A stretch of 64,000 nt of DNA, taken from contig OY761556.1 in NCBI GenBank assembly GCA_963664705.1, forward strand, positions 3,680,001-3,744,000, in the 5' to 3' direction. Position 1 is the stretch's first letter. Every line of letters starts with the position of its first letter. Source of the stretch: Acidobacteriota bacterium (GTDB taxonomy: Bacteria > Acidobacteriota > UBA6911). Made by a program: the position numbers and the translations under genes. The notes beneath the pieces are model-generated. The model did not search any database and was not told where the DNA came from. It saw nothing but the letters and a program-made list of their open reading frames with translations. This document shows, in pieces, positions 30,244 to 55,108 of the stretch.

Positions 30244-33200
30244 TTATTGCCCAGGTATTGCGGACAGTACCGACAGGCTGTTCGTGCCGAATAGGGCGAA
30301 CGAAGCAACCGGCTTGTCGGCAATCACGCGGATGTATCCGGATGTTCCATTCTGTCCTGCCATGGATGGGAAAAGTTCGGTTACAAGCCGAGCTATTCTG
30401 TTCATCCCGGGCAGTGTCTGGGTGGTCTGAGCCATCACCTGGCCGTTCTCGGAAACGAACTGAATAACCACATTGGCATTGGCAAGGCTGGGGTTCAATA
30501 CCGCAACACCGGTGAAGTACATGTCGTTGGAAGCCACCTGGCTGTAGGTGATGGAATTCCTTAAACTGTAGACCAGTGGCAGTGACGAAGCGAAGGATTG
30601 ACCATTCATGTTTCCGAAGACTGTGGACCCAGCCAACCGGATTCCATCGCTCTCGATTCGAACATATCCGGCGGTAGTCGTTTCCAAATCCAGGGCCGCG
30701 AAGAATGAGGGATCATCAATCCAGATTTTGCCTTGGGCTCCAATCACAACCTCTTTACTGGAACCGATCTGGACCCCATCTCCCCCGTACAGCTGAAGAG
30801 TAACCAGCCCCGGTCGGGAATCCAGGTTGATAATCGACAGACTTGTTTTATAGGAACCACCCATGGCGTACTGGGGTGAATAGAGAACTGTTCCACCTGC
30901 ACTTCGATCCTGTCCGCTCAATGAAGCGATGTCACCAACATCGGGCGTCATCAATTCGAAGGATTGCAGTCCTTTCGGGGAGCGAATGAGCACATAGTCG
31001 CTCGGATCCGGCTGATATCCCGTGAACAAATCGCCAAACAGATCGACCACGATAGCGCCATTCCCATTGACGGGGCGGGATTGGGAACTTCTCACGCTTC
31101 CATCCGCCTTCATGAGGTCGATTGTGACGATTCCGCTGCCAGGCTCGGTATTGGCAAGGTTGATTTTTGTCGACCCTGCCGGCACGATTTCGCTCAGGAT
31201 CACATCCCGGAATGGAGCATACCCGAAGCTTGCCCCATCCATTTCGCTGTTGTCCTCATCAAACCCGAGGTAGAAACCCACCACATCGGAACTGTCACTC
31301 TCCACCCTGATCCAGCCGTTCGCGGTGACATTGGCAAAGCCTTTCCCAAAAATATCCAGATCCATAATAGCGATCCTGGCAACTGGACCAATCGGAGAAG
31401 TCGCGGGGTTCACAATATCGGGGCCCGTGATCAGTTCCCCATTACTATCGACGGCTGTAAAGGTGAGGTCTGATTGTGTGCTGCTCATATTGGCAAGCGC
31501 GAGACCAAACATTGTCTGATTCCCTGCAGCGCTTCTCACCTCGTTGGAGTTGGCAGAGGTGAAAAGAGGCAGCGCCACCAGGAGCTTTCCGCGACTGTTT
31601 GTTGTGAATGTCGATTCTGGTGTAACCCCCTGGTTCCCGTCCGGATCGGCGGATTTGATTCTAAAGTTGTACTGAGTCGACTTCTGCAGATCATTGATCG
31701 TCAGCGAGTGCGTCGTCGCCATATCATTAATTACCGAGAGCCCGACCGGCTGGTTGGCCCGCCAGAATTCCACTCGGGAATTAGCAACAACATCCGTCGT
31801 CCAATTAATGGTGACACTACGGTTTGTGATACCGGTTATCGTGACATCGCTAATAACTGGGGGAACCCCGCTCTTGGCAGTCTGAAAAGTGTAGTCCACA
31901 GAGGTCGAAGGATTGCCCGCCGCGTCCGCAGACTTGATGCGGTAATGATAGGTAGTATTCGCCGCCAAACCTGCCAAGGTCTGGAAGTGCGACGCCACAA
32001 GTATGCTATTCAGGTTCGTTGTATTGCCATAGGTTGCACTGGCGCCGTATTCCACCTGCGTGTCCGCGGCCTCATTCGTCGTCCATGTGATAGCAGCGCC
32101 TGAACCTGTGATATTGATTGCGGCTACGTTGCTGATAACGGGGCCCGTTGTATCTTTCCCCATGGACGTGGTGAACGTATAATCACTGGAAATAGCCGGA
32201 TTGCCGGCCGCATCGCTCGATTTTACGCGATAGTGATACTGCGTATTCGCTGTCAACCCACTCAAGCCTTGCGAGTGCGTTGTCGACAGCGTGGCATCCA
32301 ACATCGTGCTGCTGCCATAGCTCGCGCTCGTTCCATATTCCACCTGCGAATTGGCCGCTTCATTGGTGGTCCATGTAATGGTCGCACTCGAACTGGCAAT
32401 GCTTGTAGCCGTCACCGCGGTGATGACCGGCGCTGTTTTATCCTGAGTGGCGGAGGTGGTGAAGGTATAATCCCCCGATGTTGCAGGATTGCCGGCCGCA
32501 TCGCTGGATTTCACGCGATAGTGATACAGCGTGTTGGCGGTCAAGCCGCTCAGGCTTTGGGAGTGGGAGGTTGCAAGCGTCGCATTCAGCGTAGTGCTGC
32601 TGCCATAGCTCGTGCTTGTCCCGTACTCCACCTGTGTATTGGCCGCTTCGTTGGTAGTCCAGGTTATGGTTGCCCCTGAACTTGTGACGCTCGATGAGCT
32701 CACACTGCTGATCGTTGGAGCAGTTGTGTCCGGCGAGGCAGATGTCGTAAATGTGTAATCGCCCGACGTTGCCGGATTGCCGGCCGCATCGCTGGACTTC
32801 ACGCGATAGTGATACAGCGTGTTGGCGGTCAAGCCGCTCAGGCTTTGGGAGTGGGAGGTTGCAAGCGTCGCATTCAGCGTGGTGCTGCTGCCATAGCTCG
32901 TGCTTGTTCCATACTCCACCTGTGTGTTGGCCGCTTCGTTGGTGGTCCAGGTTATGGTTGCCCCTGAACTTGTGACGCTCGATGAGCTCACACTGCTGAT
33001 CGTTGGAGCGGTTGTATCCGGCGTGGCAGACGTAGTGAATGTATAGTCACTGGATGTTCTCCCGTTACCGGAACCGTCACTGGATTTCACCCTGTAATGA
33101 TATAGGGTACCGGCAGTCAGGCCGCTCAGACCTTGGGAATGCGAAGTTACAAGCGAGGCATTCAGCGTGGTGCTGCTGCCATAGCTCGTGCTTGTTCCAT

Positions 33201-34656
33201 ACTCCACCTGCGTGTTGGCCGCTTCATTGGTGGTCCAGGTTATGGTTGCCCCTGAACTTGTGATGCTCGAAGAACTCACGTTGCTGATTGTCGGGGCGGT
33301 GGTATCCGGTGTGGTGGTGGTAGTAAAGGTATAGTCACCGGATGTTGCCGGGTTGCTCGACGCATCGCTGGATTTCACGCGATAGTGATACAACGTGCCG
33401 GCAGCCAGACCGCTCAGGCTTTGGGAATGCGAGGTCACCAGCGTGGCAATCAGGGTCGTGCTGCTGCCATAGCTCGCGCTCGTTCCATACTCTATCTGTG
33501 TTGTGGCTCCTTCATTAGTGGTCCAGGTAATGGTTGCACCCGTGCTGCTGATGCCGGAAGAAGTCACATTGCTGATCGTTGGAGGCGTGACATCCGCAGC
33601 CGCCGAGGTTGTAAAGGTGCAATCCCCGGAAGTTGCCGGATTGCCGGCGGCATCGCTGGATTTCACGCGATAGTGATACACCGTGCCGGCGGCCAGGCCG
33701 CTCAGGCTTTGGGAATGCGAGGTTACCAGCGTGGCATTCAGTGTTGTGCTGCTGCCATAGCTCGCGCTTGTTCCGTATTCCACCTGTGTGGTGGATCCTT
33801 CATTGGTGGACCAGGTAATGGTTGCACCTGTGCTGCTGATGCCGGCAGAGGTCACATTGGTGATCGTTGGAGGCGTGGTATCCGCAGCCGCCGAGGTTGT
33901 AAAGGTGTAATCACCGGAAGTTGCCGGATTGCCGGCGGCATCACTGGACTTGACGCGATAGTGATACAACGTGCCGGCCGTCAGACCGGTCAGACTCTGG
34001 GAATGCGAGGTTACCAGCGAAGAATTCAGGGTAATGGTGCCGTAACCGGTAGTGGTCCCGTATTCCACCTGCGTGGTAGCCGCTTCGTTGGTGGTCCAGG
34101 TAATCGTCGCCCCTGCGCTGGTGATGCTCGAGGAAGTCACACTGCTGATGGTTGGAGGTGTTGTGTCAGCCGTGGCCTGAACGGTAACGCTGCCGTTAGT
34201 TGAGGTTGTTGTAACAGCCGTGGCATTGGACGCGGACGCTACGACACCGGAGATTGTGACCGGAGTGGTGCCAGCCGAGGCGCTTCCCGAAATTGTGAGC
34301 TGAATATTGGCAACGGTTCCGGACCCGATTGAATTTGTGTTCAGCCCGAAGACAAGGATGCGCACGCCTCCCGTGATCGCATTGCCTTGAGCCTCTTTGT
34401 TTGCAGCGGTTGCAGCCGCTCCTGAAGAGGTACCCGAATAAGTCACGGAGGCGGAGAATGCCAGGTCGAATTGGAGCGTGCTTACGCTGGTGGTGCCAGC
34501 GGTGAACGCAACCGGCAGGGTAACGGTAGCGCCCGGTAGTCCCGAGGCAGTCCCGACTGTCACGGCAGCTGTTTGTGCCATCGCGCCTGTGCTGCAAAAT
34601 GTCAGCATTATCATTAACAGCGCGAAAAATGCGGAATAGTTGTATTTCCTATCCAT
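30244..34656 (-). CDS. Large secreted protein: signal peptide, cohesin-like domain, nine FN3-like repeats, four-repeat C-terminal region
   Basis: PGATVTLPV...LQFDLAF...GTVANIQLTI...NGSVTV (cohesin-like); DTTxPxIxxV...WTTNE...YHYRVKSSD repeats; start re-set to MDRKY. Confidence 0.85.
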   Translation of the reverse strand: MDRKYNYSAFFALLMIMLTFCSTGAMAQTAAVTVGTASGLPGATVTLPVAFTAGTTSVSTLQFDLAFSASVTYSGTSSGAAATAANKEAQGNAITGGVRILVFGLNTNSIGSGTVANIQLTISGSASAGTTPVTISGVVASASNATAVTTTSTNGSVTVQATADTTPPTISSVTSSSITSAGATITWTTNEAATTQVEYGTTTGYGTITLNSSLVTSHSQSLTGLTAGTLYHYRVKSSDAAGNPATSGDYTFTTSAAADTTPPTITNVTSAGISSTGATITWSTNEGSTTQVEYGTSASYGSSTTLNATLVTSHSQSLSGLAAGTVYHYRVKSSDAAGNPATSGDCTFTTSAAADVTPPTISNVTSSGISSTGATITWTTNEGATTQIEYGTSASYGSSTTLIATLVTSHSQSLSGLAAGTLYHYRVKSSDASSNPATSGDYTFTTTTTPDTTAPTISNVSSSSITSSGATITWTTNEAANTQVEYGTSTSYGSSTTLNASLVTSHSQGLSGLTAGTLYHYRVKSSDGSGNGRTSSDYTFTTSATPDTTAPTISSVSSSSVTSSGATITWTTNEAANTQVEYGTSTSYGSSTTLNATLATSHSQSLSGLTANTLYHYRVKSSDAAGNPATSGDYTFTTSASPDTTAPTISSVSSSSVTSSGATITWTTNEAANTQVEYGTSTSYGSSTTLNATLATSHSQSLSGLTANTLYHYRVKSSDAAGNPATSGDYTFTTSATQDKTAPVITAVTATSIASSSATITWTTNEAANSQVEYGTSASYGSSTMLDATLSTTHSQGLSGLTANTQYHYRVKSSDAAGNPAISSDYTFTTSMGKDTTGPVISNVAAINITGSGAAITWTTNEAADTQVEYGASATYGNTTNLNSILVASHFQTLAGLAANTTYHYRIKSADAAGNPSTSVDYTFQTAKSGVPPVISDVTITGITNRSVTINWTTDVVANSRVEFWRANQPVGLSVINDMATTHSLTINDLQKSTQYNFRIKSADPDGNQGVTPESTFTTNSRGKLLVALPLFTSANSNEVRSAAGNQTMFGLALANMSSTQSDLTFTAVDSNGELITGPDIVNPATSPIGPVARIAIMDLDIFGKGFANVTANGWIRVESDSSDVVGFYLGFDEDNSEMDGASFGYAPFRDVILSEIVPAGSTKINLANTEPGSGIVTIDLMKADGSVRSSQSRPVNGNGAIVVDLFGDLFTGYQPDPSDYVLIRSPKGLQSFELMTPDVGDIASLSGQDRSAGGTVLYSPQYAMGGSYKTSLSIINLDSRPGLVTLQLYGGDGVQIGSSKEVVIGAQGKIWIDDPSFFAALDLETTTAGYVRIESDGIRLAGSTVFGNMNGQSFASSLPLVYSLRNSITYSQVASNDMYFTGVAVLNPSLANANVVIQFVSENGQVMAQTTQTLPGMNRIARLVTELFPSMAGQNGTSGYIRVIADKPVASFALFGTNSLSVLSAIPGQ
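31600..34170 (-). repeat. Intragenic tandem array, 288-bp (96-aa) period, 9 units
   Basis: GCCGGCCGCATCGCT recurs at 32491 and 32779; central units nearly identical; boundaries approximate. Confidence 0.9.
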
Positions 34657-34721
34657 ATCCGACCTTTTCACAGAGTGGTTTTTTCCAGGAAGAGCAGTAA
34701 GAGAGCGTTGATTGCGGGAGC

Positions 34722-35222
34722 TCATTGGCAGCTCCCCTGAGTCAAAATGGCGTTGTTGAGCAGCTGAAGATCGAGAACATTGATGGAACCGTCGCCGTTG
34801 AGGTCATAGATACCGCTGCCGGCTGATAGGATGACGTTAACGAGCAATTGAAGATCGAGCGCGTTTGTCAAGGAGTCCGCATTGAGGTCACATTTATTTG
34901 TAGGGGCACCAATGACTTGGGAAATTTCGTTGGAAAAATCACTCTCGTTCCCGATTGCGTCAAAGGCGGTGACCGCAAAGTAATAGGTCCCATTAGGAAG
35001 CCCGGAAACGGTGTAATTGGTTTGGTTTCCGATAGTGATTGGAGCGCCGTACGTGTGCGAACTATTACCGTAATAAACCTTGTATCCGGTGATGCCTGAG
35101 GAAGAGCTTGCATCCCATTCCAGTGCTACATCCGTGGCCAAAGCCGTGGCAGAACAGCAGAAAAGAAGCAGCAGAATCGGCAGCGTATGAAGGAAGCCAT
35201 CAAGGAAACGCCTGTTTTTCAT
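34722..35222 (-). CDS. Secreted FN3 + dockerin protein
   Basis: Signal peptide; FN3 (LEWD..GYKVYYG..YYFAVTAFD..ESDFSNE); duplicated Ca-loop/helix DLNADSLTNALDLQLL / DLNGDGSINVLDLQLL. Confidence 0.88.
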   Translation of the reverse strand: MKNRRFLDGFLHTLPILLLLFCCSATALATDVALEWDASSSSGITGYKVYYGNSSHTYGAPITIGNQTNYTVSGLPNGTYYFAVTAFDAIGNESDFSNEISQVIGAPTNKCDLNADSLTNALDLQLLVNVILSAGSGIYDLNGDGSINVLDLQLLNNAILTQGSCQ

Positions 35223-35399: not shown

Positions 35400-35711
35400 A
35401 TGAAAAAACCTCTTAAAACCGTCGGCGTCAAGGAGCTTAAAAACAACCTCAGCTCTTATCTCCGTGAGGTCCGCGGCGGTGCCAGCGTTCTTGTCACTGA
35501 TCGCAACAATATTGTCGCAGAATTGCACGAACCCTATACCCGGCCTGACATTGCCGGCTCTGTTCATCCGCTGCTGCTGTCGTGGGCGGAATCGGGATCC
35601 ATAAGGCTCCCATTGGCAGGCAAGGAGCCTCTTGCTCTTCCCGGCCTTCGGAATCCGGTTGGGACTGTGAAGTCAATATTGGAAAATGACCGAAAGGAAT
35701 CCGGCGATTGA
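35400..35711 (+). CDS. Phd/YefM-family antitoxin
   Basis: TVGVKELKNNLSSYLREVRGG..VLVTDR. Confidence 0.9.
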   Translation: MKKPLKTVGVKELKNNLSSYLREVRGGASVLVTDRNNIVAELHEPYTRPDIAGSVHPLLLSWAESGSIRLPLAGKEPLALPGLRNPVGTVKSILENDRKESGD

Positions 35712-36145
35712 GAACCATTTATTTTGAAACTTCGGCACTCCTGGCATGGCTGCTGGGCGAACCTGCGGCCGGAGAAGTGAAGTCGCACATTGACAACGCT
35801 CAATCGGTAGCAACATCCTGCTTAACGCTTCTCGAGGCGGAAAGAGCTTTGATTAGAGGAGAGATTCAAGGTGTGTTGACTGCCAGCGACGCCGAAAAAT
35901 TGCGTGGACTCCTGGCAAGGGCGCAATCGGGGTGGGTACTGATGGAGATTTGCGAAGAAGTGCGGATGCGGGCAAGCCGATTCTTCCCCTCAGAACCCAT
36001 ACGAACACTGGATGCCATTCACCTGGCAACAGCACTGGTGTTCACCCGGGTATTCCCCGCGCTGGAGATTCTCAGCTACGACAGGCGCATCGCAAAGAAC
36101 GCGGCAGCCCTCGGCATTCCAACAACAATCAAGCTTCCCGCGTAA
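35708..36145 (+). CDS. vapC: VapC-family PIN-domain toxin
   Basis: YFETSAL, LLEAERAL, RTLDAIHLATA, SYDRR; 4-nt overlap with antitoxin. Confidence 0.9.
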   Translation: MRTIYFETSALLAWLLGEPAAGEVKSHIDNAQSVATSCLTLLEAERALIRGEIQGVLTASDAEKLRGLLARAQSGWVLMEICEEVRMRASRFFPSEPIRTLDAIHLATALVFTRVFPALEILSYDRRIAKNAAALGIPTTIKLPA

Positions 36146-38056: not shown

Positions 38057-38632
38057 GTGAGTTTGCGATCAGGAATTGCCCAGTCTGTTTACGACTATCT
38101 GGATGTAGGGAAATCCCCAAGGCCGGCTGACTGCATCTTTGTCCTGGCAGGCAAGCAGGAGAGAAAGACTTACGGAATCAAGATGTGGCGCTTCGGGTAT
38201 GCCCCCCAGCTGGTATTGAGCATCGGCAGGTTTGAGTGGCGGAAATATGGCGAACTGGGGCTTGAATCGGATGGAGGGCTTGACGACCAGAAAGAAAGAA
38301 TCCCACCGAAAAAGCGGCATTTTTTTGTGCGATTGGATCGACAGGACACGGTCTGCACCCCGATTCGGAAAGGATTTTTCGGTACCCGGACGGAGGCCCG
38401 GGAATTTGCCCGATATAGCCGCGATTTGTCGATACGATCGCTGCTGATAGTCTCCTCGCCGGTACACCTGCGAAGAGTGGCCCTCGTCTTCCGACGTGCC
38501 TTTCGCAAAAGCGGGATTCAGCTCACATTCGTTGCCATGCCGGAGAAACCCGATTTCAATTCCTCCCCCGCCCGCTCCGAAACCTGGTCTGAGATTAGAA
38601 AATATCTCCTGTACCGCTGGCTCGCCTTTTAG
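38057..38632 (+). CDS. YdcF/DUF218-like protein
   Basis: PADCIFVLAG..ER, TRTEA, VSSPVHLRR. Confidence 0.75.
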   Translation: MSLRSGIAQSVYDYLDVGKSPRPADCIFVLAGKQERKTYGIKMWRFGYAPQLVLSIGRFEWRKYGELGLESDGGLDDQKERIPPKKRHFFVRLDRQDTVCTPIRKGFFGTRTEAREFARYSRDLSIRSLLIVSSPVHLRRVALVFRRAFRKSGIQLTFVAMPEKPDFNSSPARSETWSEIRKYLLYRWLAF

Positions 38633-38687
38633 CCACGAATTCCATATTCCTTTTATTCCTTTTGTGTAATTCGTGCAATTAGTGGCA
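38632..38687. repeat. Degenerate copy of the 19667 palindromic element
   Basis: CCACGAATT...CTTTTGTGTAATTCGTGCAATTAGTGGCAG. Confidence 0.65.
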
Positions 38688-38700
38688 GAATCTTTTTCAA

Positions 38701-40743
38701 ATGCGGATCATCCTATCAGTGCTTTTATCGTTAGCACTTATTCCATCCATCCGCCAAAGGCCGGAGTGGAATAGATTTATTATCTTCGTCTGGCAGTACC
38801 AGACTGACGTTCTCCGCGACAAAGCACTCTACGAACAAGCGGGGCTCCATGCCTTCCATATTGACCGCGGCGACGGCGAGGACGAACTCGTCAAATTTTC
38901 AATCAAGAACAATTTTCCATATTATGTCGACCACGCCGCAGGAAAAGGCATTCTTTATCTTTCCAACTCGCTGCGCCCCCAGGTAACCGGAAAACGCGAT
39001 TTACTCATTCGCCCCCGTAGTCTTGCCGACCCAAACGTCATCAAGGAATTACAAGACCTGCTTCGCGCTAATATTTCCACCACGCAAAAGGGACTTGCTT
39101 ATGCATACGCCTTCGATGATGAGATCTCGCTGGGTTCATTCAACTCTCCTGCCGAGGTAGACGTTCACCCGCTATCCATTGCCCGGTATCACCAATGGCT
39201 TTCCGAGCGCTACGGCACGATTGCGCGACTAAATGCGTCTTGGGGTACATCCTACGAATCTTTCAACGATGTCCAACCGGTCAGCTTTGAAGACGTCCGC
39301 AAATCCGCCAATTCTCCTCCCTTCGCGAATTGGAATCTTTCGCGCTGGATGGAGTGGCGCCATTTTATGGACTATCAGTTTGCGAAGGTTCTCTCTGACC
39401 TGACCCAGTATGCAAATAAGCTGGATCCCCGAATTCCGGCAGGCTTTGTGGGCGGACAACAACCCTCGGCCTACGGGGGCTACGACTATGCCTATCTCAG
39501 CCGGGCGGTTCAATGGATGGAGGGGTCGGATGAATTGCTGCGGTCTTTCTGGAATCGTCCGCGGCGCCCACATGTTCAGACCTATAATATTACCGGTTCA
39601 GTCACAAGAGATACCTGGACACTCTGGTACCGCCTGGCTCACGGCGATCAGGCTGGGATTGCCTGGCCGGATGGCTGGTTTCGCACCGATTCATTGACCG
39701 GCAAGCGAATGCTGACAAAGGAAATCCAGGAACTTGCGCCGGTTTTTCGCGAAATTCAGGGCCCGGCAAGCGAATTTATCGTGAATCCGGACACCCATCT
39801 CGAGACCGATCCCATAGGGATTTACTATTCGCATCCCAGCATTCGGGCCGGGTGGGTAATGGATAGCATAACCCATGGCAGTACCTGGCCCAATCGCGCC
39901 TCCAGCCTTGATGATGAGAATTCGTCCTCGGCTCATCTCCGTTCCTCGTGGTGCCGACTGCTCGAGGATCTGGGGTATCAGTATGATTTCATAAGCTATC
40001 TGGACGTCCAGGAAAAAAAGATTGATTTGAATCAGCGTTTTAAGGTGATCGTCCTCCCACAGACCATTTGCCTCTCCGACGTTGAAGTTGAAGCACTGAG
40101 GTCATTTGTAAAATCCGGAGGAATTCTGATCGCGGACGATCTTACAGGCTTACTGACAGACACAGGACGCGGACGCAAACAGGGGGCTTTGGATGATCTC
40201 TTCGGAATTGTCCGTGACGAGTCCAAGGGATACCTGGACGGGAGAGGATTGACCGAGATCGACGCGGAATATGGAAACAAACCATTTCAGGATCGGCTTC
40301 GAGCCTATCCGGGGTCTCTGCACAAAGGACCACTGGTTGTTTTTGAAAGAGGCACGCAACAGAAAATCCAAAACAGCAGGGCAATTTACCTAAACCTGAC
40401 CCCGCTGGCTTATGAACACTGGCGGAATGATCGTCCGGGGCAAGAGTGGCGTACGCTGATAGGAAACACGCTGAAGGAATTGGGAGTGCCGCCTCGTATA
40501 ATGACGAATTTGCCCTTTGTGGAATCGCTGCTTTGGCGAAATGGCGATCGGTATGTGCTCGCCATTGTAAAAAACAGCGAGGGAGAGACTCAACGAACCG
40601 GGCAACAGATTCGTATTCAACTGGGAATAGATGCAAAAAATATCAGAAACATCCGAACCGGAAAGGCGTTAGCCGGGCCAGACTTTACAGACGAATTCAA
40701 TCCCTGCGAGGCAAATCTCTATGGTTTTACGGGGCCCAGGTAA
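38701..40743 (+). CDS. Secreted GH42-like (beta-galactosidase catalytic + trimerisation-like domain) protein
   Basis: WLSERYGTIARLNASWGT, WMEWRHF, FKVIVLPQ...FVKSGGILIAD; AFDDE candidate acid/base. Confidence 0.65.
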   Translation: MRIILSVLLSLALIPSIRQRPEWNRFIIFVWQYQTDVLRDKALYEQAGLHAFHIDRGDGEDELVKFSIKNNFPYYVDHAAGKGILYLSNSLRPQVTGKRDLLIRPRSLADPNVIKELQDLLRANISTTQKGLAYAYAFDDEISLGSFNSPAEVDVHPLSIARYHQWLSERYGTIARLNASWGTSYESFNDVQPVSFEDVRKSANSPPFANWNLSRWMEWRHFMDYQFAKVLSDLTQYANKLDPRIPAGFVGGQQPSAYGGYDYAYLSRAVQWMEGSDELLRSFWNRPRRPHVQTYNITGSVTRDTWTLWYRLAHGDQAGIAWPDGWFRTDSLTGKRMLTKEIQELAPVFREIQGPASEFIVNPDTHLETDPIGIYYSHPSIRAGWVMDSITHGSTWPNRASSLDDENSSSAHLRSSWCRLLEDLGYQYDFISYLDVQEKKIDLNQRFKVIVLPQTICLSDVEVEALRSFVKSGGILIADDLTGLLTDTGRGRKQGALDDLFGIVRDESKGYLDGRGLTEIDAEYGNKPFQDRLRAYPGSLHKGPLVVFERGTQQKIQNSRAIYLNLTPLAYEHWRNDRPGQEWRTLIGNTLKELGVPPRIMTNLPFVESLLWRNGDRYVLAIVKNSEGETQRTGQQIRIQLGIDAKNIRNIRTGKALAGPDFTDEFNPCEANLYGFTGPR

Positions 40744-40875
40744 TTTTTTCGCTCCGGGCCTTGTGGGTTTGGTATTCGGGACCCAATGCATGCCCATATA
40801 TTTGCCCTAAAACAGTTTGCCCAATTAGGGGACAAGATCTAAAATCGCACCACACTCTCTATCCTGGAGGACAAA

Positions 40876-41076
40876 GTGAAAAATTACGGCACGGCAAGTC
40901 AAGTCTTCTTGTTGTTGGCTTTATTGGGCTGGATCGGTTGGATTGCAACGAGGTTTACAGGGCCGGTTTTCAGGATTTCCTACGAGGGATTTCTTGCCTT
41001 TACGAATACATGCCTGCTTTTTGCTATTGCCGCCAGTCTGATCGGACTGGGACTATCCCAGAAGAAAGCAGAATAG
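40876..41076 (+). CDS. Small two-TM membrane protein
   Basis: GGAGG RBS then GTG; two hydrophobic helices. Confidence 0.65.
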   Translation: MKNYGTASQVFLLLALLGWIGWIATRFTGPVFRISYEGFLAFTNTCLLFAIAASLIGLGLSQKKAE

Positions 41077-41090
41077 GAAATTTAGAAAAG

Positions 41091-41120
41091 TTGACACCTA
41101 AGCATCCTTGCGCTTAGAAT
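41091..41120 (+). promoter_or_regulatory. sigma70 promoter of peptide-PqqD-kinase-NTase cassette
   Basis: TTGACA-18 nt-TAGAAT. Confidence 0.6.
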
Positions 41121-41245
41121 AATTTACCCTCACTCATTTTGAAGATTTGACTGCGGATGTACGATAAGGAGGAAGTGCCTGCAGCCGAAGTATCCCCGTT
41201 ACGAGCGCACAACAAACCTAGCAGGCTGTAAAGGAGTGCACCCTG

Positions 41246-41488
41246 ATGTCGGAAGAACACGAGAAAAAAGCGGGCAAGGTGGCTGCGCCTGGACTTGACG
41301 AGGAAATCGTTGCAGCTAAAGAAGGACCAACAGGGACTCGGAGGGAGATCATCAAAGCCGGGATCGCGGCAGTACCTATCCTATTGACTCTAAAAAGCAA
41401 ACCGGCGTGGGCGAAAGAGGATAAGTACACGCATTCTGACAAAATGTCAGCAACCCATTTTTCGCATCATCCTGACGACGCCAAATAA
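41246..41488 (+). CDS. 80-aa twin-arginine leader peptide, candidate RiPP-like precursor
   Basis: AAGGAG RBS; TRREIIK, AAVPILLTL, PAWA, then 24-aa polar tail. Confidence 0.75.
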   Translation: MSEEHEKKAGKVAAPGLDEEIVAAKEGPTGTRREIIKAGIAAVPILLTLKSKPAWAKEDKYTHSDKMSATHFSHHPDDAK

Positions 41489-41496
41489 TTTATCTG

Positions 41497-41781
41497 ATGT
41501 CCCCGTTCGCAGACGAAGTCTGGAAAATATCAAGCGGGTCTCGCTTGCATTATCGAAAATGGCAGAATGAATACGTTTTCTATAATGCGGGATCTGGCGA
41601 TACGCATCTATTGGATGCGGTTTCTGGAGAGGTATTGAGCTATCTGGAAAAGAACCCTTCGACGGTTGAACAGATTTCAGCCGCACTGGGATTTCCGAAG
41701 GATCCGGCTCGACGGGATCTTCTCCCTCAGATAATCCACCATCTTCGCAATGCATCATTGATAGAGCTTGAGTTGCAGTGA
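41497..41781 (+). CDS. PqqD-family/RRE peptide chaperone, HPr-rel-A system (TIGR04353-like)
   Basis: WQNEYVFYNAGSGDTHLLD then three helices ending LRNASLI. Confidence 0.85.
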   Translation: MSPFADEVWKISSGSRLHYRKWQNEYVFYNAGSGDTHLLDAVSGEVLSYLEKNPSTVEQISAALGFPKDPARRDLLPQIIHHLRNASLIELELQ

Positions 41782-42674
41782 AGATCGGCGAAGCTACCTA
41801 TTCACAGCTGAAGAGCCTGCTGATCGATCAGGGCCTGCCATTTCAATCCGGCCCCTTTTCGATCAAACTTCATACGGACATCCCTGCAATTATCCAGCCC
41901 CTGCAAACCCTGTACTGGGACTATGCGATTGATCCACAAAAGGAATTCTTCGATTTCCATATTTCGGTGAAACGGGCAAAGGGCCTCCGCCGATGGTGGA
42001 AACCGCAGGTCCGCTTTCTCTTGCAGAACGAATCTTTCTTTTTTCCCTTTCCCATTAGCCTTTCGTATCCACTATTCGAATGGGGGCTCAACTGGTGTAT
42101 ATCCTCCCAGGCAAATCAGTATCTTATTATCCACTCGGCTGTGTTGGAACGTAACGGTCAGGCCATATTTCTAACCGCATCCCCGGGAGCGGGAAAAAGC
42201 ACTCTTGCCGCGGCATTGACATTCCGTGGTTGGAGGCTTCTCTCAGATGAACTGGCTCTTATCCGGCTGACGGACACTCGCGTTGCACCATTGGCCAGAC
42301 CCATCAGCATCAAGAATGACTCTATCCCAATAATCAGAAACTATGCGCCTGAAGCGGTAATCGGCCCTATCTGGCATGACCCGGAAGGCACGGTTGCGCA
42401 CATTCGTCCGCCCCGAGAATGCGTCGACAAAGCGAACGAGCTTGCGAGACCTTCTGTAATACTCTTTATGGCCTACAAGCCCGATTCAAACACCGAAGTG
42501 ACGCCCGTACCCAAATCAAGGGCGTTTTTGAGGATGGGCGAGAACGCCTTTAATTACAGTCTGCTGGGAACAGCCGGGTTTGAAACCATGGCGAACCTGA
42601 TTGAGGCATGCAATATTTACGAGTTTTATTACAGCGACCTCGATGATGCAGTAGCGCAACTTGCATCCCTATAG
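41778..42674 (+). CDS. HprK-related kinase A (TIGR04352-like)
   Basis: RRWWKPQ, FEWGLNWCI, IIHSAV, ASPGAGKST, LLSDE, GTVAH, NAFNY. Confidence 0.9.
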   Translation: MKIGEATYSQLKSLLIDQGLPFQSGPFSIKLHTDIPAIIQPLQTLYWDYAIDPQKEFFDFHISVKRAKGLRRWWKPQVRFLLQNESFFFPFPISLSYPLFEWGLNWCISSQANQYLIIHSAVLERNGQAIFLTASPGAGKSTLAAALTFRGWRLLSDELALIRLTDTRVAPLARPISIKNDSIPIIRNYAPEAVIGPIWHDPEGTVAHIRPPRECVDKANELARPSVILFMAYKPDSNTEVTPVPKSRAFLRMGENAFNYSLLGTAGFETMANLIEACNIYEFYYSDLDDAVAQLASL

Positions 42675-42683
42675 CGGGCATAT

Positions 42684-43754
42684 ATGGCAGAACAAGCAAA
42701 TCTTCTGATAAAAGCCCTCTGTGATCCGAAAGCTGCCGGGGATTTCAGCCTTTCGGAATGGGACAGGTGTATTCGAATGGCCCGGCATTCCAATGTCTTA
42801 TCCCGGCTTTCGTTTTTGCTCAAAGACCAGACAGAAAGCGGACAGATTGCCGCGCCAGTACGCGAGCATCTGCTGGCCGCACGAGTCGTTGCGGATCAAC
42901 ACGAGCGCATCATGCGATGGGAGGTGAGGCAGGTTGAGCGTGTGTTGGGGCCGATGGCCAGGCAGACAATCCTGCTTAAGGGTGCAGCTTATGTAACCCG
43001 CGGACTTCCGCCTGCTCGAGGACGACTCTACTCCGACCTCGACATAATGGTCCCACTGAGCGAAATTGACAGGGTTGAAACAGCGCTGCTTCAAAACGGG
43101 TGGGAGCACATTAAGCTCGAGCCCTATGACCAGAGATATTACAGGCAATGGATGCACGAATTGCCTCCATTACGACATGGTGTGCGAAAGACCTGCCTGG
43201 ACGTACATCACACAATCCTGCCCCGATCCGGCCGTCTTCGCCCTGCTCCGGATCTGCTTTTCAAGGCAGCTGCTCCAATGGAAGGAACATACTTTCGGAC
43301 GCTCTCTTCGGCCGATATGGTTCTGCACTCGGCCGCGCATCTATTCCAGGATGGAGATCTTGCCGGTGGTCTGAGAGATCTGACCGATCTGGATGATCTG
43401 CTCCGATACTTTGACCTGCAGGCGGGATTCTGGGATGATCTGGTTTCAAGAGGAGAAACGCTGGGCCTCTTGCGTCCCCTGTTCTACGCACTTCGGTACA
43501 CACGGAAAATATTGGGAACGCCAATACCGGAATCAGTACGGATCAGGGCAGAGTCCGGATCACCACCGGCAATGGCTCTTAAAATAATGGATCACGCCGT
43601 ATCCCGGGCGCTCACTCCGCTGGAACCGGTTGCCAATACTCCAGGGGCAGGGTTTGCTCGATGGTTTCTCTACGTTCGTTCACACTATCTGCGCATGCCC
43701 CCTACTCTGCTCTTTGTTCATCTTCTGCGCAAAGCGGTCAGGCGTGCCCATTAG
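42684..43754 (+). CDS. Nucleotidyltransferase family protein (NTP_transf_5 type)
   Basis: LLKGAAY, GRLYSDLDIMVP, YYRQWMHELPP, DVHH, YVRSHYLRMP. Confidence 0.88.
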   Translation: MAEQANLLIKALCDPKAAGDFSLSEWDRCIRMARHSNVLSRLSFLLKDQTESGQIAAPVREHLLAARVVADQHERIMRWEVRQVERVLGPMARQTILLKGAAYVTRGLPPARGRLYSDLDIMVPLSEIDRVETALLQNGWEHIKLEPYDQRYYRQWMHELPPLRHGVRKTCLDVHHTILPRSGRLRPAPDLLFKAAAPMEGTYFRTLSSADMVLHSAAHLFQDGDLAGGLRDLTDLDDLLRYFDLQAGFWDDLVSRGETLGLLRPLFYALRYTRKILGTPIPESVRIRAESGSPPAMALKIMDHAVSRALTPLEPVANTPGAGFARWFLYVRSHYLRMPPTLLFVHLLRKAVRRAH

Positions 43755-43777
43755 AAATGGCGGCAGGTACTGATCTT

Positions 43778-44668
43778 CTAGGAACTCAGGGCGGGCGTTT
43801 GATTTGAATACAATGGCAGCCTTTGAACAACTTCCGTAACCGTTCCGAAACGGAAGTCCGCAAGCAGATGCTCCAGCTTCTTTCGCATTCCGCTCAGATT
43901 CGTATAGTGCCGCAGTCTGGACTTTAAAGGAGCGTCGATTTGCGGCTGATCCGGATCGATCTCCCAGGGGTGAAAATAAACCATGGCCGGCTGCCGTTCG
44001 ACATTGTTGATTTCGCGGATCGCCCAGCGCGTAACTGCATACGGCAGGAGACGCAGATACCCGCCGCCAGCCGCTCCGATGTTATGGTTTAGTTTCCGCA
44101 TCGTGGAAGGGGGAAATTCCAATATGTGGTTTCGCCAGTGGGGAAATCGGCTTGATTCCGGCATTCCATACAGATCGTGATGCACGGGAAAAATGGAGGA
44201 GTCTATCCGGATGCCCACTTCGACGAGAATATCCAGCGCCCACAGCGTATCCCGGGCAATTGAAAAGCTTGGCGCCCGGTAGCAGAGAACAGGTTTCTGA
44301 CCCTGATCTGTCAACAGCCCCAGGGAACGTCGTGTATCTTCGCGAAATTGCTCGGGCGTCAGGCGCCGGATGTGCTGGTGGGCATAGCTGTGGCAGCCGA
44401 TCTCATGGCCGGCATTTGAAATCCTGCGCACCAGTGCAGGGGATTTTTCGGCAACCCAGCCAAGGACAAAAAAAGTCGCGGTGGTATTGTGCGCGGCCAG
44501 CAGATCCAGGATATTGTCGACATTCCGTTCAACCCGCAGTTGATATCCGGACCAGGCTGAGGGCGACACATGCTTTGCAAAAGCTTCAACGTGAAAATAG
44601 TCTTCTACGTCAATGCTGAACGCATTCAGGATTTTTTTGTCGGCTGAAATGAGATCCGTGTTCATCAT
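43778..44668 (-). CDS. Polysaccharide deacetylase, XrtA-system type (DUF3473)
   Basis: SIDVEDYFHV, HEIGCHSYAH, YRAPSFSI, GGGYLR, YFHPWEIDPDQP. Confidence 0.92.
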   Translation of the reverse strand: MMNTDLISADKKILNAFSIDVEDYFHVEAFAKHVSPSAWSGYQLRVERNVDNILDLLAAHNTTATFFVLGWVAEKSPALVRRISNAGHEIGCHSYAHQHIRRLTPEQFREDTRRSLGLLTDQGQKPVLCYRAPSFSIARDTLWALDILVEVGIRIDSSIFPVHHDLYGMPESSRFPHWRNHILEFPPSTMRKLNHNIGAAGGGYLRLLPYAVTRWAIREINNVERQPAMVYFHPWEIDPDQPQIDAPLKSRLRHYTNLSGMRKKLEHLLADFRFGTVTEVVQRLPLYSNQTPALSS

Positions 44669-44764
44669 TAGCGAAGCCCATACTCTGACCTGGCGGACCG
44701 TCATCGACGGCGCTGGAGAGCCGGCCCACATTTTATTGACATGTCGCGTGGGCGGCTATCCTGA

Positions 44765-45661
44765 CTACTGGCCGTTTTTTTGAGAACTGCGGTAGTAATA
44801 CTGGTAATAGTAACGGGAAGTGGAAACCCGTTTCTGGCGGTTGATGACTATGCCACAAATATGGTCGCGTCCAATTCGATCCACTGCCTGCGCCGCAAGC
44901 TTCGCGGGAGTGGAATTCGCTCTCAGAACAAGAACCACGGTATCGCAGAGAGGGATCAGAAGATTAGTATCTGACAGAGAGAGGATTGGCGGAGAGTCGA
45001 CAATCACAAAGTCAAAGTTTTCCGCCGCAGCCTTCAGCAAACGCTCAAACTGCTGCGACCCGAGCAATTCCGATGGGTTGGAGGGAAGTGGCCCGGATGG
45101 CAGGAAACAGAATTCGGGATTCGCCGATTTGAGAATAGCCCGGTTGAAAGGTATGTTTCCGCGCAACACTTCAGAGAGACCGAGGGTATCCCCTGCTCCA
45201 TTGATGCCAAAACCGGCACCTGATCGAGGCTTTCTCATATCGGCATCAATCAGGAGTATTCGCTTCCCCGGCTCTTGAGCAAACACACCGACCAGCCCGG
45301 AAGCCGTAAAGGTTTTCCCCTCTTCCGGAACTGTGCTGGTAACAAGTACCGTCTTGATACCGCGCTGCTTTTGCATCAACCCAAGCCTGGAGCGCAAAAG
45401 CCGGAACTGTTCGCCTGCTACCGTAAGGGGCTCCAGCACATTTCTGATTTGCGGCGATGCGAGCGCGAGATCAAACCTGTCCGTTTCACAGATTTCGACA
45501 TCCACCGGAAGCTGTGCAGGTGGCATCACGTCAAGAGTGACTTCCGGTTTGAATTCTTCAACGGGTTCAGGCAAAGGCTCTGCAATCGCCGGCTCAGGCA
45601 CTATTGCCTTTTTCCTTCGTTCAGTTTCAGTCTTCTTGAGAAAGTCGAATATTTCGCTCAT
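44765..45661 (-). CDS. CpsD/CapB-type tyrosine kinase (Wzc cytoplasmic part)
   Basis: EQFRLLR, TSTVPEEGKT, LIDAD, VDSPP, C-terminal YYYQYYY. Confidence 0.93.
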   Translation of the reverse strand: MSEIFDFLKKTETERRKKAIVPEPAIAEPLPEPVEEFKPEVTLDVMPPAQLPVDVEICETDRFDLALASPQIRNVLEPLTVAGEQFRLLRSRLGLMQKQRGIKTVLVTSTVPEEGKTFTASGLVGVFAQEPGKRILLIDADMRKPRSGAGFGINGAGDTLGLSEVLRGNIPFNRAILKSANPEFCFLPSGPLPSNPSELLGSQQFERLLKAAAENFDFVIVDSPPILSLSDTNLLIPLCDTVVLVLRANSTPAKLAAQAVDRIGRDHICGIVINRQKRVSTSRYYYQYYYRSSQKNGQ

Positions 45662-53212: not shown

Positions 53213-55108
53213 TTGATTCATCTAAGCGCATTTGTCCCTAATCCATCAAATCAACCAATTCCCGACCACCGCATCCAACAATGGAAACAGAATTGTGTCT
53301 CCGCAAGCCATGACAATCGCTGGATAAAAGCCGGGGACCGCTATTTCCTGCTGATTCAGGGAGACTGCAGTCTGGAGCATTTTGTTTACAGCTCTGATGC
53401 AGTCGATTTGATCTGCTACACAGATCTCCTCGGCTCCGGGTCCGGCGAGGATTTTGCCGAAGCAAATCAAAATCCAGCATCATATCTGGCGCATCGATAC
53501 GAAAAAATGGGCGAAGCGTTTGCCAGGGAGCTTCGAGGATGGTTCGGCGTTATTCTGTATGACCACAAGGAAAAGCGGCTGAAGGCCTGGACAGATCACT
53601 TCGGTGTGCGCAGGCTGGTATACCAAAAAACATCTCAGGGATTCGGCATGGCATCGGATTTGCGGCTTCTGAATGCCTTCTTTGATCGTAAGCCTGAAGT
53701 GGAGCCGGCATCCATTCTTGAATACCTCCAATATACCTGCATCCCGGCTCCACACACCATATACAAAGGGATTTCGCGGCTGGAGCCTGGTCATTGGATA
53801 ACCTCTGATCCAGATTCGATTTCGCAGCCCTTCTGGGGCTTGAATTACCAGGAAACCAAAGGGCGGAATCAGCAAGCCTGGGAGGAGAGCACATACCAGG
53901 CCATCGAATCGGCCGTGGCCCGATCGTCAAAGGTCATGGACAACTCGCAGCACATCGGCTGTTTTCTCAGTGGAGGAACCGACAGCAGTTCGGTAAGCGG
54001 ACTGGTGGGGAAAATCACGCAGGCATCTCCCACAACCATATCCATTGGATTTGAAGATCCGCGATATAACGAAATCGAATACGCCCGGATTGCGGCAAAA
54101 CATTTTAAAACGGATCACCACGAATATTTTGTAAAGCCGGCCGATATCCTGAGTCTTCTGACTCGTATCTACGATGTCTACGATGAGCCATTCGGCAATT
54201 CATCTATCGTTCCAGCCTTCTTCTGCTCAAAAACAGGCCTGGAAAATGGCGTCACCCACATGCTCGCCGGTGATGGCGGAGATGAGCTGTTTGGCGGCAA
54301 TCAAAGATACGGAAGTGACAGGCTGTTCCAGCGCTATCACTGGATTCCCAGGTTTATCCGCAAAGGAGCGCTGGAGCCTCTGGTCGCAGGATCTTCCCGC
54401 CTGCTGAAGATCGACAAACTGGATCTCATTCAGCGCTATATCCGCAGGGCCAATATCCCTTTGCCTGATCGCTACTTCTCTTACGACTTCATTTCGTCAG
54501 TCAATCGAGCGGAGCTGTTCTCGAATTCCCTTTTATGCGATCTCAAAGACATTGATCCCCTGGCTGTCGCCAGAAAGCACTTCCGGAATGCAGTAGCCAC
54601 CGAAGATCTGAACCGCTGGCTTCAGCTTGACTTGAAAATAACGATTACGGATAACGACATACGTAAAGTAACAGTAATGGCCGAACTGGCGGGAACCGTT
54701 CCCAGGTATCCGCTCCTGGATCCGGGGCTGGCGGAATTTGCAGCCACCATTCCATCCGCACTGAAAGTAAAGGGGATGCAGCTGCGGTACCTGTTCAAAC
54801 AGGCCATGAGCAGGATTTTGCCCCGGGAGATTCTGACCAAGACAAAACATGGATTTGGGCTGCCCTTCAGTACCTGGTTGCTTGAAGATCCGAATCTGCA
54901 TACCTTTGTTTTCGATATTCTCGGTTCAGGTGCCGCCCGCCAGCGCGGCTATCTCCGCCCCGACATGCTTGAATGGCTGTGGACGCGCTATCAGACAGAA
55001 AGCAAGGTCTATTATGGCGATGTGCTCTGGACCTTTCTGATGCTTGAATTGTGGCACCGTTCCCTTGACAGGCAAATGAGTGACTTCAACACCATGGGAT
55101 CCAATTGA
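53213..55108 (+). CDS. Asparagine synthetase-like amide ligase with degenerate glutaminase domain
   Basis: LSGGTDSS, EPFGNSS, GDGGDELFGG, KHGFGLP; no N-terminal MCG nucleophile. Confidence 0.88.
   Translation: MIHLSAFVPNPSNQPIPDHRIQQWKQNCVSASHDNRWIKAGDRYFLLIQGDCSLEHFVYSSDAVDLICYTDLLGSGSGEDFAEANQNPASYLAHRYEKMGEAFARELRGWFGVILYDHKEKRLKAWTDHFGVRRLVYQKTSQGFGMASDLRLLNAFFDRKPEVEPASILEYLQYTCIPAPHTIYKGISRLEPGHWITSDPDSISQPFWGLNYQETKGRNQQAWEESTYQAIESAVARSSKVMDNSQHIGCFLSGGTDSSSVSGLVGKITQASPTTISIGFEDPRYNEIEYARIAAKHFKTDHHEYFVKPADILSLLTRIYDVYDEPFGNSSIVPAFFCSKTGLENGVTHMLAGDGGDELFGGNQRYGSDRLFQRYHWIPRFIRKGALEPLVAGSSRLLKIDKLDLIQRYIRRANIPLPDRYFSYDFISSVNRAELFSNSLLCDLKDIDPLAVARKHFRNAVATEDLNRWLQLDLKITITDNDIRKVTVMAELAGTVPRYPLLDPGLAEFAATIPSALKVKGMQLRYLFKQAMSRILPREILTKTKHGFGLPFSTWLLEDPNLHTFVFDILGSGAARQRGYLRPDMLEWLWTRYQTESKVYYGDVLWTFLMLELWHRSLDRQMSDFNTMGSN

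Follow-up and report, generated by a model that had tools for sequence, protein, structure and literature searches.

What does a trio of a PqqD-family protein, a kinase and a nucleotidyltransferase-fold enzyme act on when it stands in an exopolysaccharide (EPS) locus, and how would its product leave the cell? The question is raised by a stretch of 64,000 nucleotides (nt) from an Acidobacteriota bacterium of the UBA6911 lineage (contig OY761556.1, positions 3,680,001 to 3,744,000 of the forward strand), which we call the window, and within it by four + strand genes that follow one another with a gap of 8 nt, an overlap of 4 nt and a gap of 9 nt. The first (41246-41488) encodes a protein of 80 amino acids (aa), with a 56-aa leader resembling a twin-arginine translocation (Tat) signal and a predicted mature peptide of 24 aa. 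The second (41497-41781) encodes a discrete recognition element (RRE) for RiPPs (peptides made on the ribosome and modified after translation), a PqqD-family protein of 94 aa and of HPr-rel-A type; the third (41778-42674, GTG start) an HprK-related kinase A of 298 aa; and the fourth (42684-43754) an NTP_transf_5 nucleotidyltransferase-fold enzyme of 356 aa. Since these three pass the cut-offs of TIGR04353 (40.3 bits, cut-off 35), TIGR04352 (353.4 bits, cut-off 200) and PF14907 (181 bits, cut-off 31.2), the trio is by sequence the catalogued HPr-rel-A cassette, as an initial annotation made from the letters alone had recognized; the gene coordinates, the spacing and the ribosome-binding site given there also agree with the sequence and with the list of open reading frames (ORFs). 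The 80-aa ORF matched no NCBIfam or Pfam family in the library searches. Two DNA sequencing runs compared with this sequence revealed no variants; one of them may be the source of this DNA, and the other leaves most of the small ORF uncovered.

Our analysis indicates that the 80-aa ORF belongs by its sequence, as one of the shorter members, to a conserved family encoded next to the HPr-rel-A trio, and that it is very probably the substrate of that trio. We propose that the RRE would bind the leader segment from -13 to -8 (numbered from the predicted cleavage after A56), that the kinase would phosphorylate S68 and/or S64, that the PF14907 enzyme would add a hexose to the serine phosphate, for which PsmN is the precedent, and that the modified peptide would leave by Tat, host signal peptidase I removing the leader. 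The Tat signal would thereby double as RiPP leader and replace the SipW-like peptidase and ATP-binding cassette (ABC) exporter of the LPP clusters of Bacillota, and the Tat route would let a chain decorated in the cytoplasm cross the membrane. Taken whole, with RRE-guided serine phosphorylation, likely hexose addition and likely Tat export, this model seems to us somewhat better placed to be right than wrong, judged from sequence and analogy. Its direct support consists of gene linkage, conservation of leader and serines, intact enzyme motifs, tatC and the lack of a dedicated peptidase or exporter beside the cassette, and from these we infer every biochemical step.

Linkage is the first part of the argument. 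We took the best 80 of 426 kinase loci confirmed from GTDB genomes, and added 30 loci from a 401-genome sample of the window's own phylum, in which the kinase exceeds its cut-off in 7 genomes. With an iterated leader profile, 74 of the 80 loci show a homologous ORF that bears the leader; in 72 it lies directly upstream of the RRE gene, and in 2 it is convergent behind the nucleotidyltransferase gene. Five of the six loci without one are cut by a contig end. In one of these, L079, a leader fragment is visible at the edge, and for another, L012, the genome carries substrate and RRE together on a separate contig, which speaks for the linkage. Because this profile was trained on the same 80 loci, two less circular tests were run. 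A leave-out profile built from 69 other loci places the window ORF first among the 159,084 stop-to-stop frames of its genome (43.5 bits, E 1.5e-10), the next-best frame reaching at most 15.5 bits with ordinary Tat-like N-termini included, and the ORF is thus more than a chance reading frame. For the second test, 401 genomes were drawn evenly from the class of genome G401 and chosen independently of the kinase, 400 of them being scored for the leader. The kinase occurs in 31 of the 401 (about 8%) and the leader family, at E<=1e-5, in 32 of the 400; 28 genomes have both, side by side in 27 and split by contig ends in 1, at least 3 of these 28 having been in the training set. In the three kinase-only genomes the expected place holds a divergent leader in one and an RR-containing ORF with a Cys/Ser core in another, and the third is truncated. 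The check suggested at the outset, for a conserved small ORF beside homologous cassettes, has thus found one in 74 of 80 kinase loci and in 28 of 31 kinase genomes. The loci are phylogenetically clustered, and these counts therefore overstate their independence, which tells against the strength of the linkage.

The second part is conservation within the substrate. Our alignment has 76 rows, the window and 75 of 79 distinct segments, the near-duplicates L030, L036, L049 and L053 being left out. The twin arginine R32-R33 of the window (41339-41344; positions -25 and -24) is retained in 75 and 76 of the 76 leaders, respectively, and is followed by F at -22 (58 rows), K or R at -20 (62), a hydrophobic run from -12 to -10, T or S at -9 (all 76) and S at -6 (60); position -13 is P in 41 rows and G in 30, so that the family consensus reads RR…P/G-x-x-x-T/S-L-x-S…A/G. 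In the window, P44-L49 (PILLTL, 41375-41392), with P at -13, L at -11 and -10 and T at -9, is the predicted RRE-binding segment, and P-A-W-A (residues 53-56, 41402-41413) is a predicted signal peptidase I site, matched in the family by A/G at -1 in 74 of 76 rows and V/A/G at -3 in 72. Past the cleavage site most members read C-x-S/T-x-S-G-x-x-S-G-N-x-S and then have a second Cys, and 65 of 76 have an SxxxS within their first 20 mature residues, where 1,000 shuffles gave 28.2 ± 3.9 and at most 41. The window peptide is without the Cys pair; its T at +6 and S at +8 and +12 stand in the modal register. The predicted phospho-acceptors S64-x-x-x-S68 (41435-41449) are the last two of these, and the alignment has Ser at their positions in 67 and 70 of the 76 rows. 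The twin arginine, PILLTL, PAWA and the composition of the 24-aa tail (3 Ser, 2 Thr, 1 Tyr and 4 His, the last Ser being residue 73 of 80 and the last residue Lys) are all as originally described.

The kinase that would use these serines carries the HprK histidine H119, the P-loop GxGKST and the acidic pair D157-E158, all invariant in 79 of 79 rows; its sequence matches HprK and its structure model has a PEPCK/HprK-type fold. As reported for its characterized relative, LppK puts up to four phosphates on a linear precursor, at Ser3, and was inactive on the S3T and S3Y substitutes (PMC13381572). Since LppK did not modify these, Thr and Tyr are unlikely acceptors here, and the original suggestion of Ser and Thr in the tail narrows to the two serines, which match the conserved S-x-x-x-S. 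Sequence and analogy together make serine phosphorylation of the substrate probable. There are, however, points on the other side. The serine register of the window has a chance probability of 0.011 on an exact criterion and 0.054 on a loose one, and could thus be fortuitous at about the 0.05 level under the latter. Moreover, 11 of 76 substrates have no SxxxS, and L085 and L086, from the window's own phylum, are devoid of Ser over their first 25 mature residues, so that a serine acceptor cannot be universal. A quick maximum-likelihood tree built from 79 kinases places that of the window as sister to a clade of 65 rows (SH-aLRT 89, no bootstrap) in which all visible substrates carry C...SxxxS, and the substrates without SxxxS fall outside it; this placement is congruent with the serine model, yet it amounts to one branching event. 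Among the outsiders, L081, L085, L086 and L149 form a kinase clade (support 95) with short substrates that lack SxxxS and are Tyr/Thr-rich after the cleavage site, and these may use another acceptor; the L149 entry stands for an orphan, a second copy of a substrate around which no cassette lies within about 6 kb. In L035, L078, L085, L184 and L188, whose substrates lack the SxxxS core, the nucleotidyltransferase gene lies upstream of the substrate gene, mostly divergent, and not after the kinase gene.

Could the kinase and the nucleotidyltransferase have nothing to do with the peptide? A kinase and a nucleotidyltransferase are the usual pair for sugar activation, and they might convert a sugar to a sugar phosphate and then to a nucleoside diphosphate sugar for EPS synthesis, with the RRE merely chaperoning the Tat signal of an unmodified passenger. 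Such a pair would suit the location in an EPS cluster, and some substrates, as just described, are without the conserved Ser. In the L012 genome the substrate and RRE genes lie on another contig than the kinase and nucleotidyltransferase genes, the substrate staying with the RRE, and L005 has the kinase and nucleotidyltransferase alone, neither an RRE nor a substrate lying within 6 kb. The latter, a real local exception whose 1.2-Mb genome gave no match for RRE or substrate, is also a point against our model. Nevertheless we regard sugar activation as quite unlikely: the characterized relatives LppK and PsmK are, in the accounts given of them, peptide serine kinases (PMC13381572, PMC6993621), the serines behind the cleavage site stand far above shuffles and are invariant (68 of 68) in the sister family described below, and the RRE and kinase genes overlap in the window and abut in most loci.

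If serine phosphorylation is the first step, what would the PF14907 enzyme add? Its residues K99-G100, G113-R114 and D118/D120 are invariant in 77 of 77 rows, and neither it nor the kinase looks degenerate. Its model (pLDDT 94) matches Pol-beta-type transferases, the best folds being MenT1 (Z 13.1, rmsd 2.8, 176 residues aligned) and ANT(2'') (Z 10.3, rmsd 3.7, 165 aligned), followed by LnuA (Z 9.9) and FKRP (Z 6.1); Foldseek gave no match at E<=0.001, and no sequence relative was found in the PDB. The first three of these folds belong to enzymes that transfer a nucleoside monophosphate (NMP), and FKRP comes in only at the lower Z, which favors the proposal of the initial annotation that, on the same phosphorylated substrate, the enzyme adds NMP to the phosphoserine or extends it. 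In addition, the authors of the PsmN study could not exclude that PsmN makes a substrate for a host glycosyltransferase (PMC6993621). However, the only genetic read-out for an enzyme of this kind points to sugar: phosphorylated pseudomycoidin needs PsmN, with its DxD, to gain one or two hexoses (+162/+324 Da), and PsmN was itself modelled on the ANT(2'') fold (PMC6993621), while polyphosphorylation in the LPP and psm systems is described as the work of the kinase (PMC13381572, PMC6993621). We therefore regard the NMP reading as unlikely though not negligible, the genetic precedent being +162 Da of hexose on phosphoserine. That the enzyme adds sugar rather than NMP we put forward tentatively and by analogy, at slightly less than even chances: deletion of lppN was reported to have no effect in B. 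subtilis (PMC13381572), and PMC11912497 puts no in vitro activity of PsmN on record. A more specific idea is that a sugar linked to the substrate through serine phosphate or pyrophosphate would mimic an undecaprenyl-pyrophosphate-linked sugar and serve as a protein-borne primer or anchor, on which the glycosyltransferases encoded nearby would build the EPS or to which they would attach it before Tat exports the bulky glycoprotein; this we think improbable, though were it true floc and biofilm matrices would depend on a type of bacterial phosphoglycosylation not yet described, and one common to a larger superfamily that includes the YxxPxI sister family and the RRE-leader fusions discussed next.

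How would the RRE recognize its substrate? That it binds the window peptide we infer by homology. Its best solved relatives are the lasso B1 proteins TbiB1 (E 0.0014) and TfuB1 (E 0.0028), and complex predictions with peptide residues 26-80 scored 0.13 and 0.07 against a mark of 0.32, controls not having been folded, and are counted neither for nor against binding. Indirect evidence comes from the leader-only genomes of the class-level sample, which carry a sister family: here a twin-arginine leader with Y-x-x-P-x-I at -16/-13/-11 adjoins an RRE and an HprK-like kinase that is more remote in sequence (85 and 72 bits on TIGR04352, below its cut-off). Of the best 80 of 153 metagenomic loci of the sister kinase (L196-L275), 70 have leaders, 69 have RREs and 48 have nucleotidyltransferases. 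The 68 distinct leaders, one truncated copy being dropped, have Y at -16 in 58 (F in 9, V in 1), P at -13 and T or S at -9 in all 68, G at +3 in 66 and S at +4 in all 68, and the sister precursors (L151, L191, L192, L195 and L196-L275) end in a variable tail of median length 31.5 aa and sometimes come in 2-3 copies. On sequence this looks like the cleanest Tat-leader analogue of LPP. The likeness to YxxPxL that had been noted for the window leader holds in the HPr-rel-A family for P(-13), present in about half, and fails for Tyr(-16), present in 1 of 76; the true YxxPxI is that of the sister leaders.

The LPP crystal structure, as reported, has LppB D70 hydrogen-bonded to Tyr-16 of the leader (PMC13381572). 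In sister pairs the RRE has the corresponding Asp with a Tyr leader in 47 of 49 cases and lacks it with a non-Tyr leader in 10 of 10, this column ranking first of all RRE columns for association with the Tyr of the leader. Both parts of this comparison have a weakness: the ten non-Tyr cases are a single clade, so that the pairing counts as one evolutionary event, and the Asp was equated with D70 through TbiB1 and an i/i+4 spacing, not by direct alignment. HPr-rel-A members have neither partner (Tyr(-16) in 1 of 76, Asp in 1 of 74), a second state that is concordant with the pairing. It also means that the RRE motif is degraded in the family to which the window belongs, with no Tyr and with G or A for Pro in 35 of 76. 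Within HPr-rel-A, a comparison fixed beforehand, of Pro-13 with Asn/Asp at the RRE position of LppB N33, gave 25/14 versus 16/17 (p 0.23) and lends the binding model no help. Wherever the RRE has Gly there, the leader is of the non-Pro kind (12 of 12); since other RRE columns associate more strongly, this points to shared ancestry. Finally, 5 ORFs from 3 other genomes join an RRE directly, in one chain, with a similar RR leader and with a core rich in Cys (L153:7030-7626, L155:5775-6383 and L157:1677-3763); L157 has three tandem copies, and a kinase and/or nucleotidyltransferase gene adjoins the fusion in L153 and L155.

The twin arginine also bears on how the product would leave. The Tat consensus is S/T-R-R-x-F-x-K, and Tat carries pre-modified cargo. 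The host genome has two tatC genes over cut-off. In the family the RRxFxK, the basic c-region residue (60 of 76) and the small residues at -3 and -1 fit Tat export and signal peptidase I, at least 13 uncharged residues are present in 61 of 76 leaders, and at least two Cys stand just behind the cleavage site in 66 of 76, as in exported proteins. From the sequences we judge Tat export of the substrate rather likely. The alternative is that the RR leader is a cytoplasmic recognition handle and no Tat signal, the product staying inside, for instance as a regulator of EPS synthesis, or leaving otherwise. Several observations speak for such a handle and to the same extent against our model: the fusions retain the RR about 100 residues from the N-terminus, inside the chain; position +4 of the Tat motif is Thr or Ala in 41 of 76; the hydrophobic stretch of the window leader has only 12 uncharged residues, and that leader matches neither TIGR01409 nor the Pfam TAT family; and TIGR01409 matches in the alignment are weak and few (8 of 76, best E 0.0011). 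The distance from the arginines to the cleavage site, 23-24 residues in 71 of 76 leaders, is moreover more fixed than export alone needs. Set against these, besides the features that fit Tat, is the lack of any other obvious way out. We scanned the neighbors of the cassette in 80 loci (74 GTDB loci, six near-duplicates having been removed, and six extended loci of the own phylum), and in ORFs of at least 100 aa found no SipW-like peptidase, by the motif GxSMxP or by phmmer, in these loci or in the window from 27000 to 64000. We take GxSMxP to be the motif of such peptidases; it is present in a control protein from locus L112. An MsbA-like ABC exporter was matched by phmmer in 1 of the 80 loci and nowhere in the window from 27000 to 64000. 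On this evidence an internal recognition handle seems to us unlikely. In the flanks of 30 of the 80 loci (L006:3092-4075 and 29 others) there is a trypsin-like protease (PF13365) that probably bears a Sec signal and may act as a processing enzyme in the periplasm; it was not found in the window from 27000 to 64000.

Is the substrate a peptide at all? In the window it is, as first proposed, but the family at large is not: the mature part has a median length of 147.5 aa and is 60 aa or less in 8 of 76, the 24 aa of the window being second shortest, and most members are proteins of about 200 aa of which the window ORF is a minimal version. For most Pseudomonadota, a Cys-containing domain of about 150 aa stands behind this same N-terminal module, and we therefore propose, conditionally, that the cassette would decorate one secreted matrix protein by phospho(glyco)sylation directed through the leader. 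The family occurs together with the cassette in records of Pseudomonadota, Acidobacteriota and Myxococcota. Searched against 1.84 billion representatives, a profile matched 1,342 clusters at E<=1e-10; with the limit at E<=1e-3 the number is 3,554. The top match, P0002 (2,981 aa, 26 repeats), was dropped as a repeat protein matching by chance; among the 149 other matches listed, RRx[FLIVM] is present in 147 and the median length is 212 aa, motif counts that are not independent since the same profile selected the matches. A word-based search with the 80-aa ORF returned, among 3 candidates, only the ORF itself, and a weak search for the mature domain inside longer proteins found none among 47 candidates. 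In a protein atlas, the clusters nearest to the 80-aa peptide are unnamed proteins of 60-77 aa; named neighbors below 0.9 carry Tat-type N-termini, which is a lead only, and a long family member matched only unnamed clusters.

The short tail with its four His in 24 residues had also suggested a metal-binding or signalling peptide, which would then be the purpose of the system. Short versions do occur in each of the 7 genomes that carry the kinase in the own-phylum sample. However, at least three His in the first 24 mature residues are found in 1 of 76 tails, that of the window itself, and the short tails share no motif, so a His-rich peptide is a very improbable purpose for the system.

The surroundings of the cassette are those of an XrtA/PEP-CTERM EPS locus, as had been described: TIGR03013, TIGR03006, TIGR03019, TIGR03087 and the O-glycosylation ligase TIGR03097 are over cut-off in the window, and an exosortase gene lies about 15 kb beyond it. 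In the 80 loci of the neighbor scan an EPS or PEP-CTERM neighbor was classified in 57, a lower bound given without a background control. The 23 of 80 loci without such a neighbor count against a general link, but a role in the EPS matrix is likely. The promoter that the initial annotation had assigned to the cassette, TTGACA-18 nt-TAGAAT at 41091-41120 (+), is there, matches the consensus at 11 of 12 positions and is the best promoter-like site within 40000-45000; that interval, however, holds 6 such sites against 4.4 ± 2.3 in shuffles, so the site should be read as a consensus match only. A Shine-Dalgarno-like AGGAG (41232-41236, +) lies 9 nt 5' of the substrate ATG. Just 5' of the promoter match, 40876-41076 (+) encodes a 66-aa ORF with two hydrophobic stretches and no family match, and before it, at 38057-40743 (+), are a DUF218 protein and a GH42-like protein of 680 aa, similar genes being found near the cassette in the same-family genome G210 (L118). 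Adjoining the EPS locus, 30244-35222 (-) encodes a 1,493-aa protein with tandem Ser/Thr-rich repeats of about 95 aa resembling fibronectin type III and, as its partner, a protein of 166 aa, each bearing a probable signal peptide; two overlapping small genes at 35400-36145 (+), of 103 and 145 aa and with no NCBIfam match at 1e-5, look by their motifs like a Phd/PIN-type toxin-antitoxin pair.

The same genome has two more RiPP-like gene sets. One (L112:3774-11177, at G000:C1 ~1,387,800-1,395,200) lies in another polysaccharide locus and has a gene set closer to LPP, with a short YxxPxI precursor carrying a Cys/Ser-rich core, a radical SAM protein, an HprK-like kinase, a peptidase resembling SipW (32.9 bits on TIGR02228, below its cut-off), a PF14907 protein and an ABC exporter. 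An RRE was not seen among these genes. The other (L111:9043-14296, at G000:C1 ~6,217,000-6,222,300) has PqqD, an HprK-like kinase and PF14907 among glycosyltransferase-like genes, and the leader profile found no twin-arginine leader nearby.

Why should the cassette matter beyond this locus? It is present in about 8% of the class-level sample, mostly in EPS/PEP-CTERM loci linked to floc and biofilm formation. With a substrate and two candidate serines named it becomes testable, and the 80-aa version, which is near a minimal substrate, suits peptide mass spectrometry. If our model is right, an export signal and entire secreted proteins would come under the leader logic of RiPPs, and the activity of PF14907 enzymes such as PsmN and LppN could be addressed on a cluster that stands amid its own sugar-supply genes.

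How does the cassette compare with known systems? Its catalogue entry, HPr-rel-A (TIGR04352 plus TIGR04353, here adjacent with the 4-nt overlap and both over curated cut-offs), names no substrate, and the upstream peptide family has no NCBIfam or Pfam model. The Creative Commons-licensed PMC and bioRxiv literature, supplements of preprints excepted, gave no description of this cassette or its substrate, and the main text of epsSMASH makes no mention of PqqD, HprK or RiPP. What is already published, for Bacillota, is the enzyme set and the linear phosphorylated class in polysaccharide loci. The LPP clusters of capsular polysaccharide loci (Popov et al. 2026, PMC13381572) are reported to encode, besides a precursor and an RRE, an HprK kinase and an NTP transferase together with a SipW-like peptidase and an MsbA-like exporter, and their supplement labels LppK TIGR04352 and LppN PF14907. 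Thus, while no cyclase or radical SAM gene is among our four genes, in accord with the linear, kinase-defined class envisaged at the outset, that class is not new. The cassette shares with LPP, as far as that account describes it, the discrete RRE, the HprK-like kinase and PF14907 without a cyclase in a polysaccharide locus, precursors (35-200 aa in LPP) with a conserved N-terminus and a variable C-terminus, and a leader with P at -13 and L at -11 and -10 where LppA has P-13/V-11/L-10 in the same numbering. Unlike LPP, it has no SipW-like peptidase or MsbA-like ABC exporter beside it; instead of the consensus YxxPxVLxHQxIxFETxxS it has a twin-arginine leader with an AxA-type site and no FET; position -16 is Ala in the window; the predicted acceptors are at +8/+12, with no Ser at +3; the substrate is usually a Cys-containing protein of about 200 aa; and the records come from Pseudomonadota, Acidobacteriota and Myxococcota. 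The main text of PMC13381572 has no word beginning with 'Tat'. Without the peptidase, the exporter and the leader consensus of LPP, the cassette should not be filed as LPP; judged by sequence, it is likely a variant of an LPP-type peptide system, one that lacks the peptidase, the ABC exporter and the Tyr. With the paeninodin/pseudomycoidin set (PsmK, PsmB1 and PsmN, as described in PMC6993621) it shares an HprK-type kinase with an acidic pair, an RRE and a DxD nucleotidyltransferase. Unlike paeninodin-type lasso clusters, the four genes include no macrolactam cyclase or B2 peptidase, the precursor lacks a C-terminal Ser and the product would be linear; an asparagine-synthase-like amidotransferase at 53213-55108, 9.5 kb away, reaches 120 bits on the lasso cyclase model NF033535 (cut-off 525) and scores higher on the XrtA amidotransferase model. 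Phospeptin is likewise a linear phosphorylated RiPP, but is described as made by a LanM-like enzyme acting on Thr (PMC12639078), whereas the window kinase has the HprK/PEPCK fold. Lastly, the window carries the EPS families of the XrtA/PEP-CTERM system around a substrate that has no PEP-CTERM tail, and, in contrast to the targets of the periplasmic ligase of that system, this substrate would be decorated in the cytoplasm by way of its leader.

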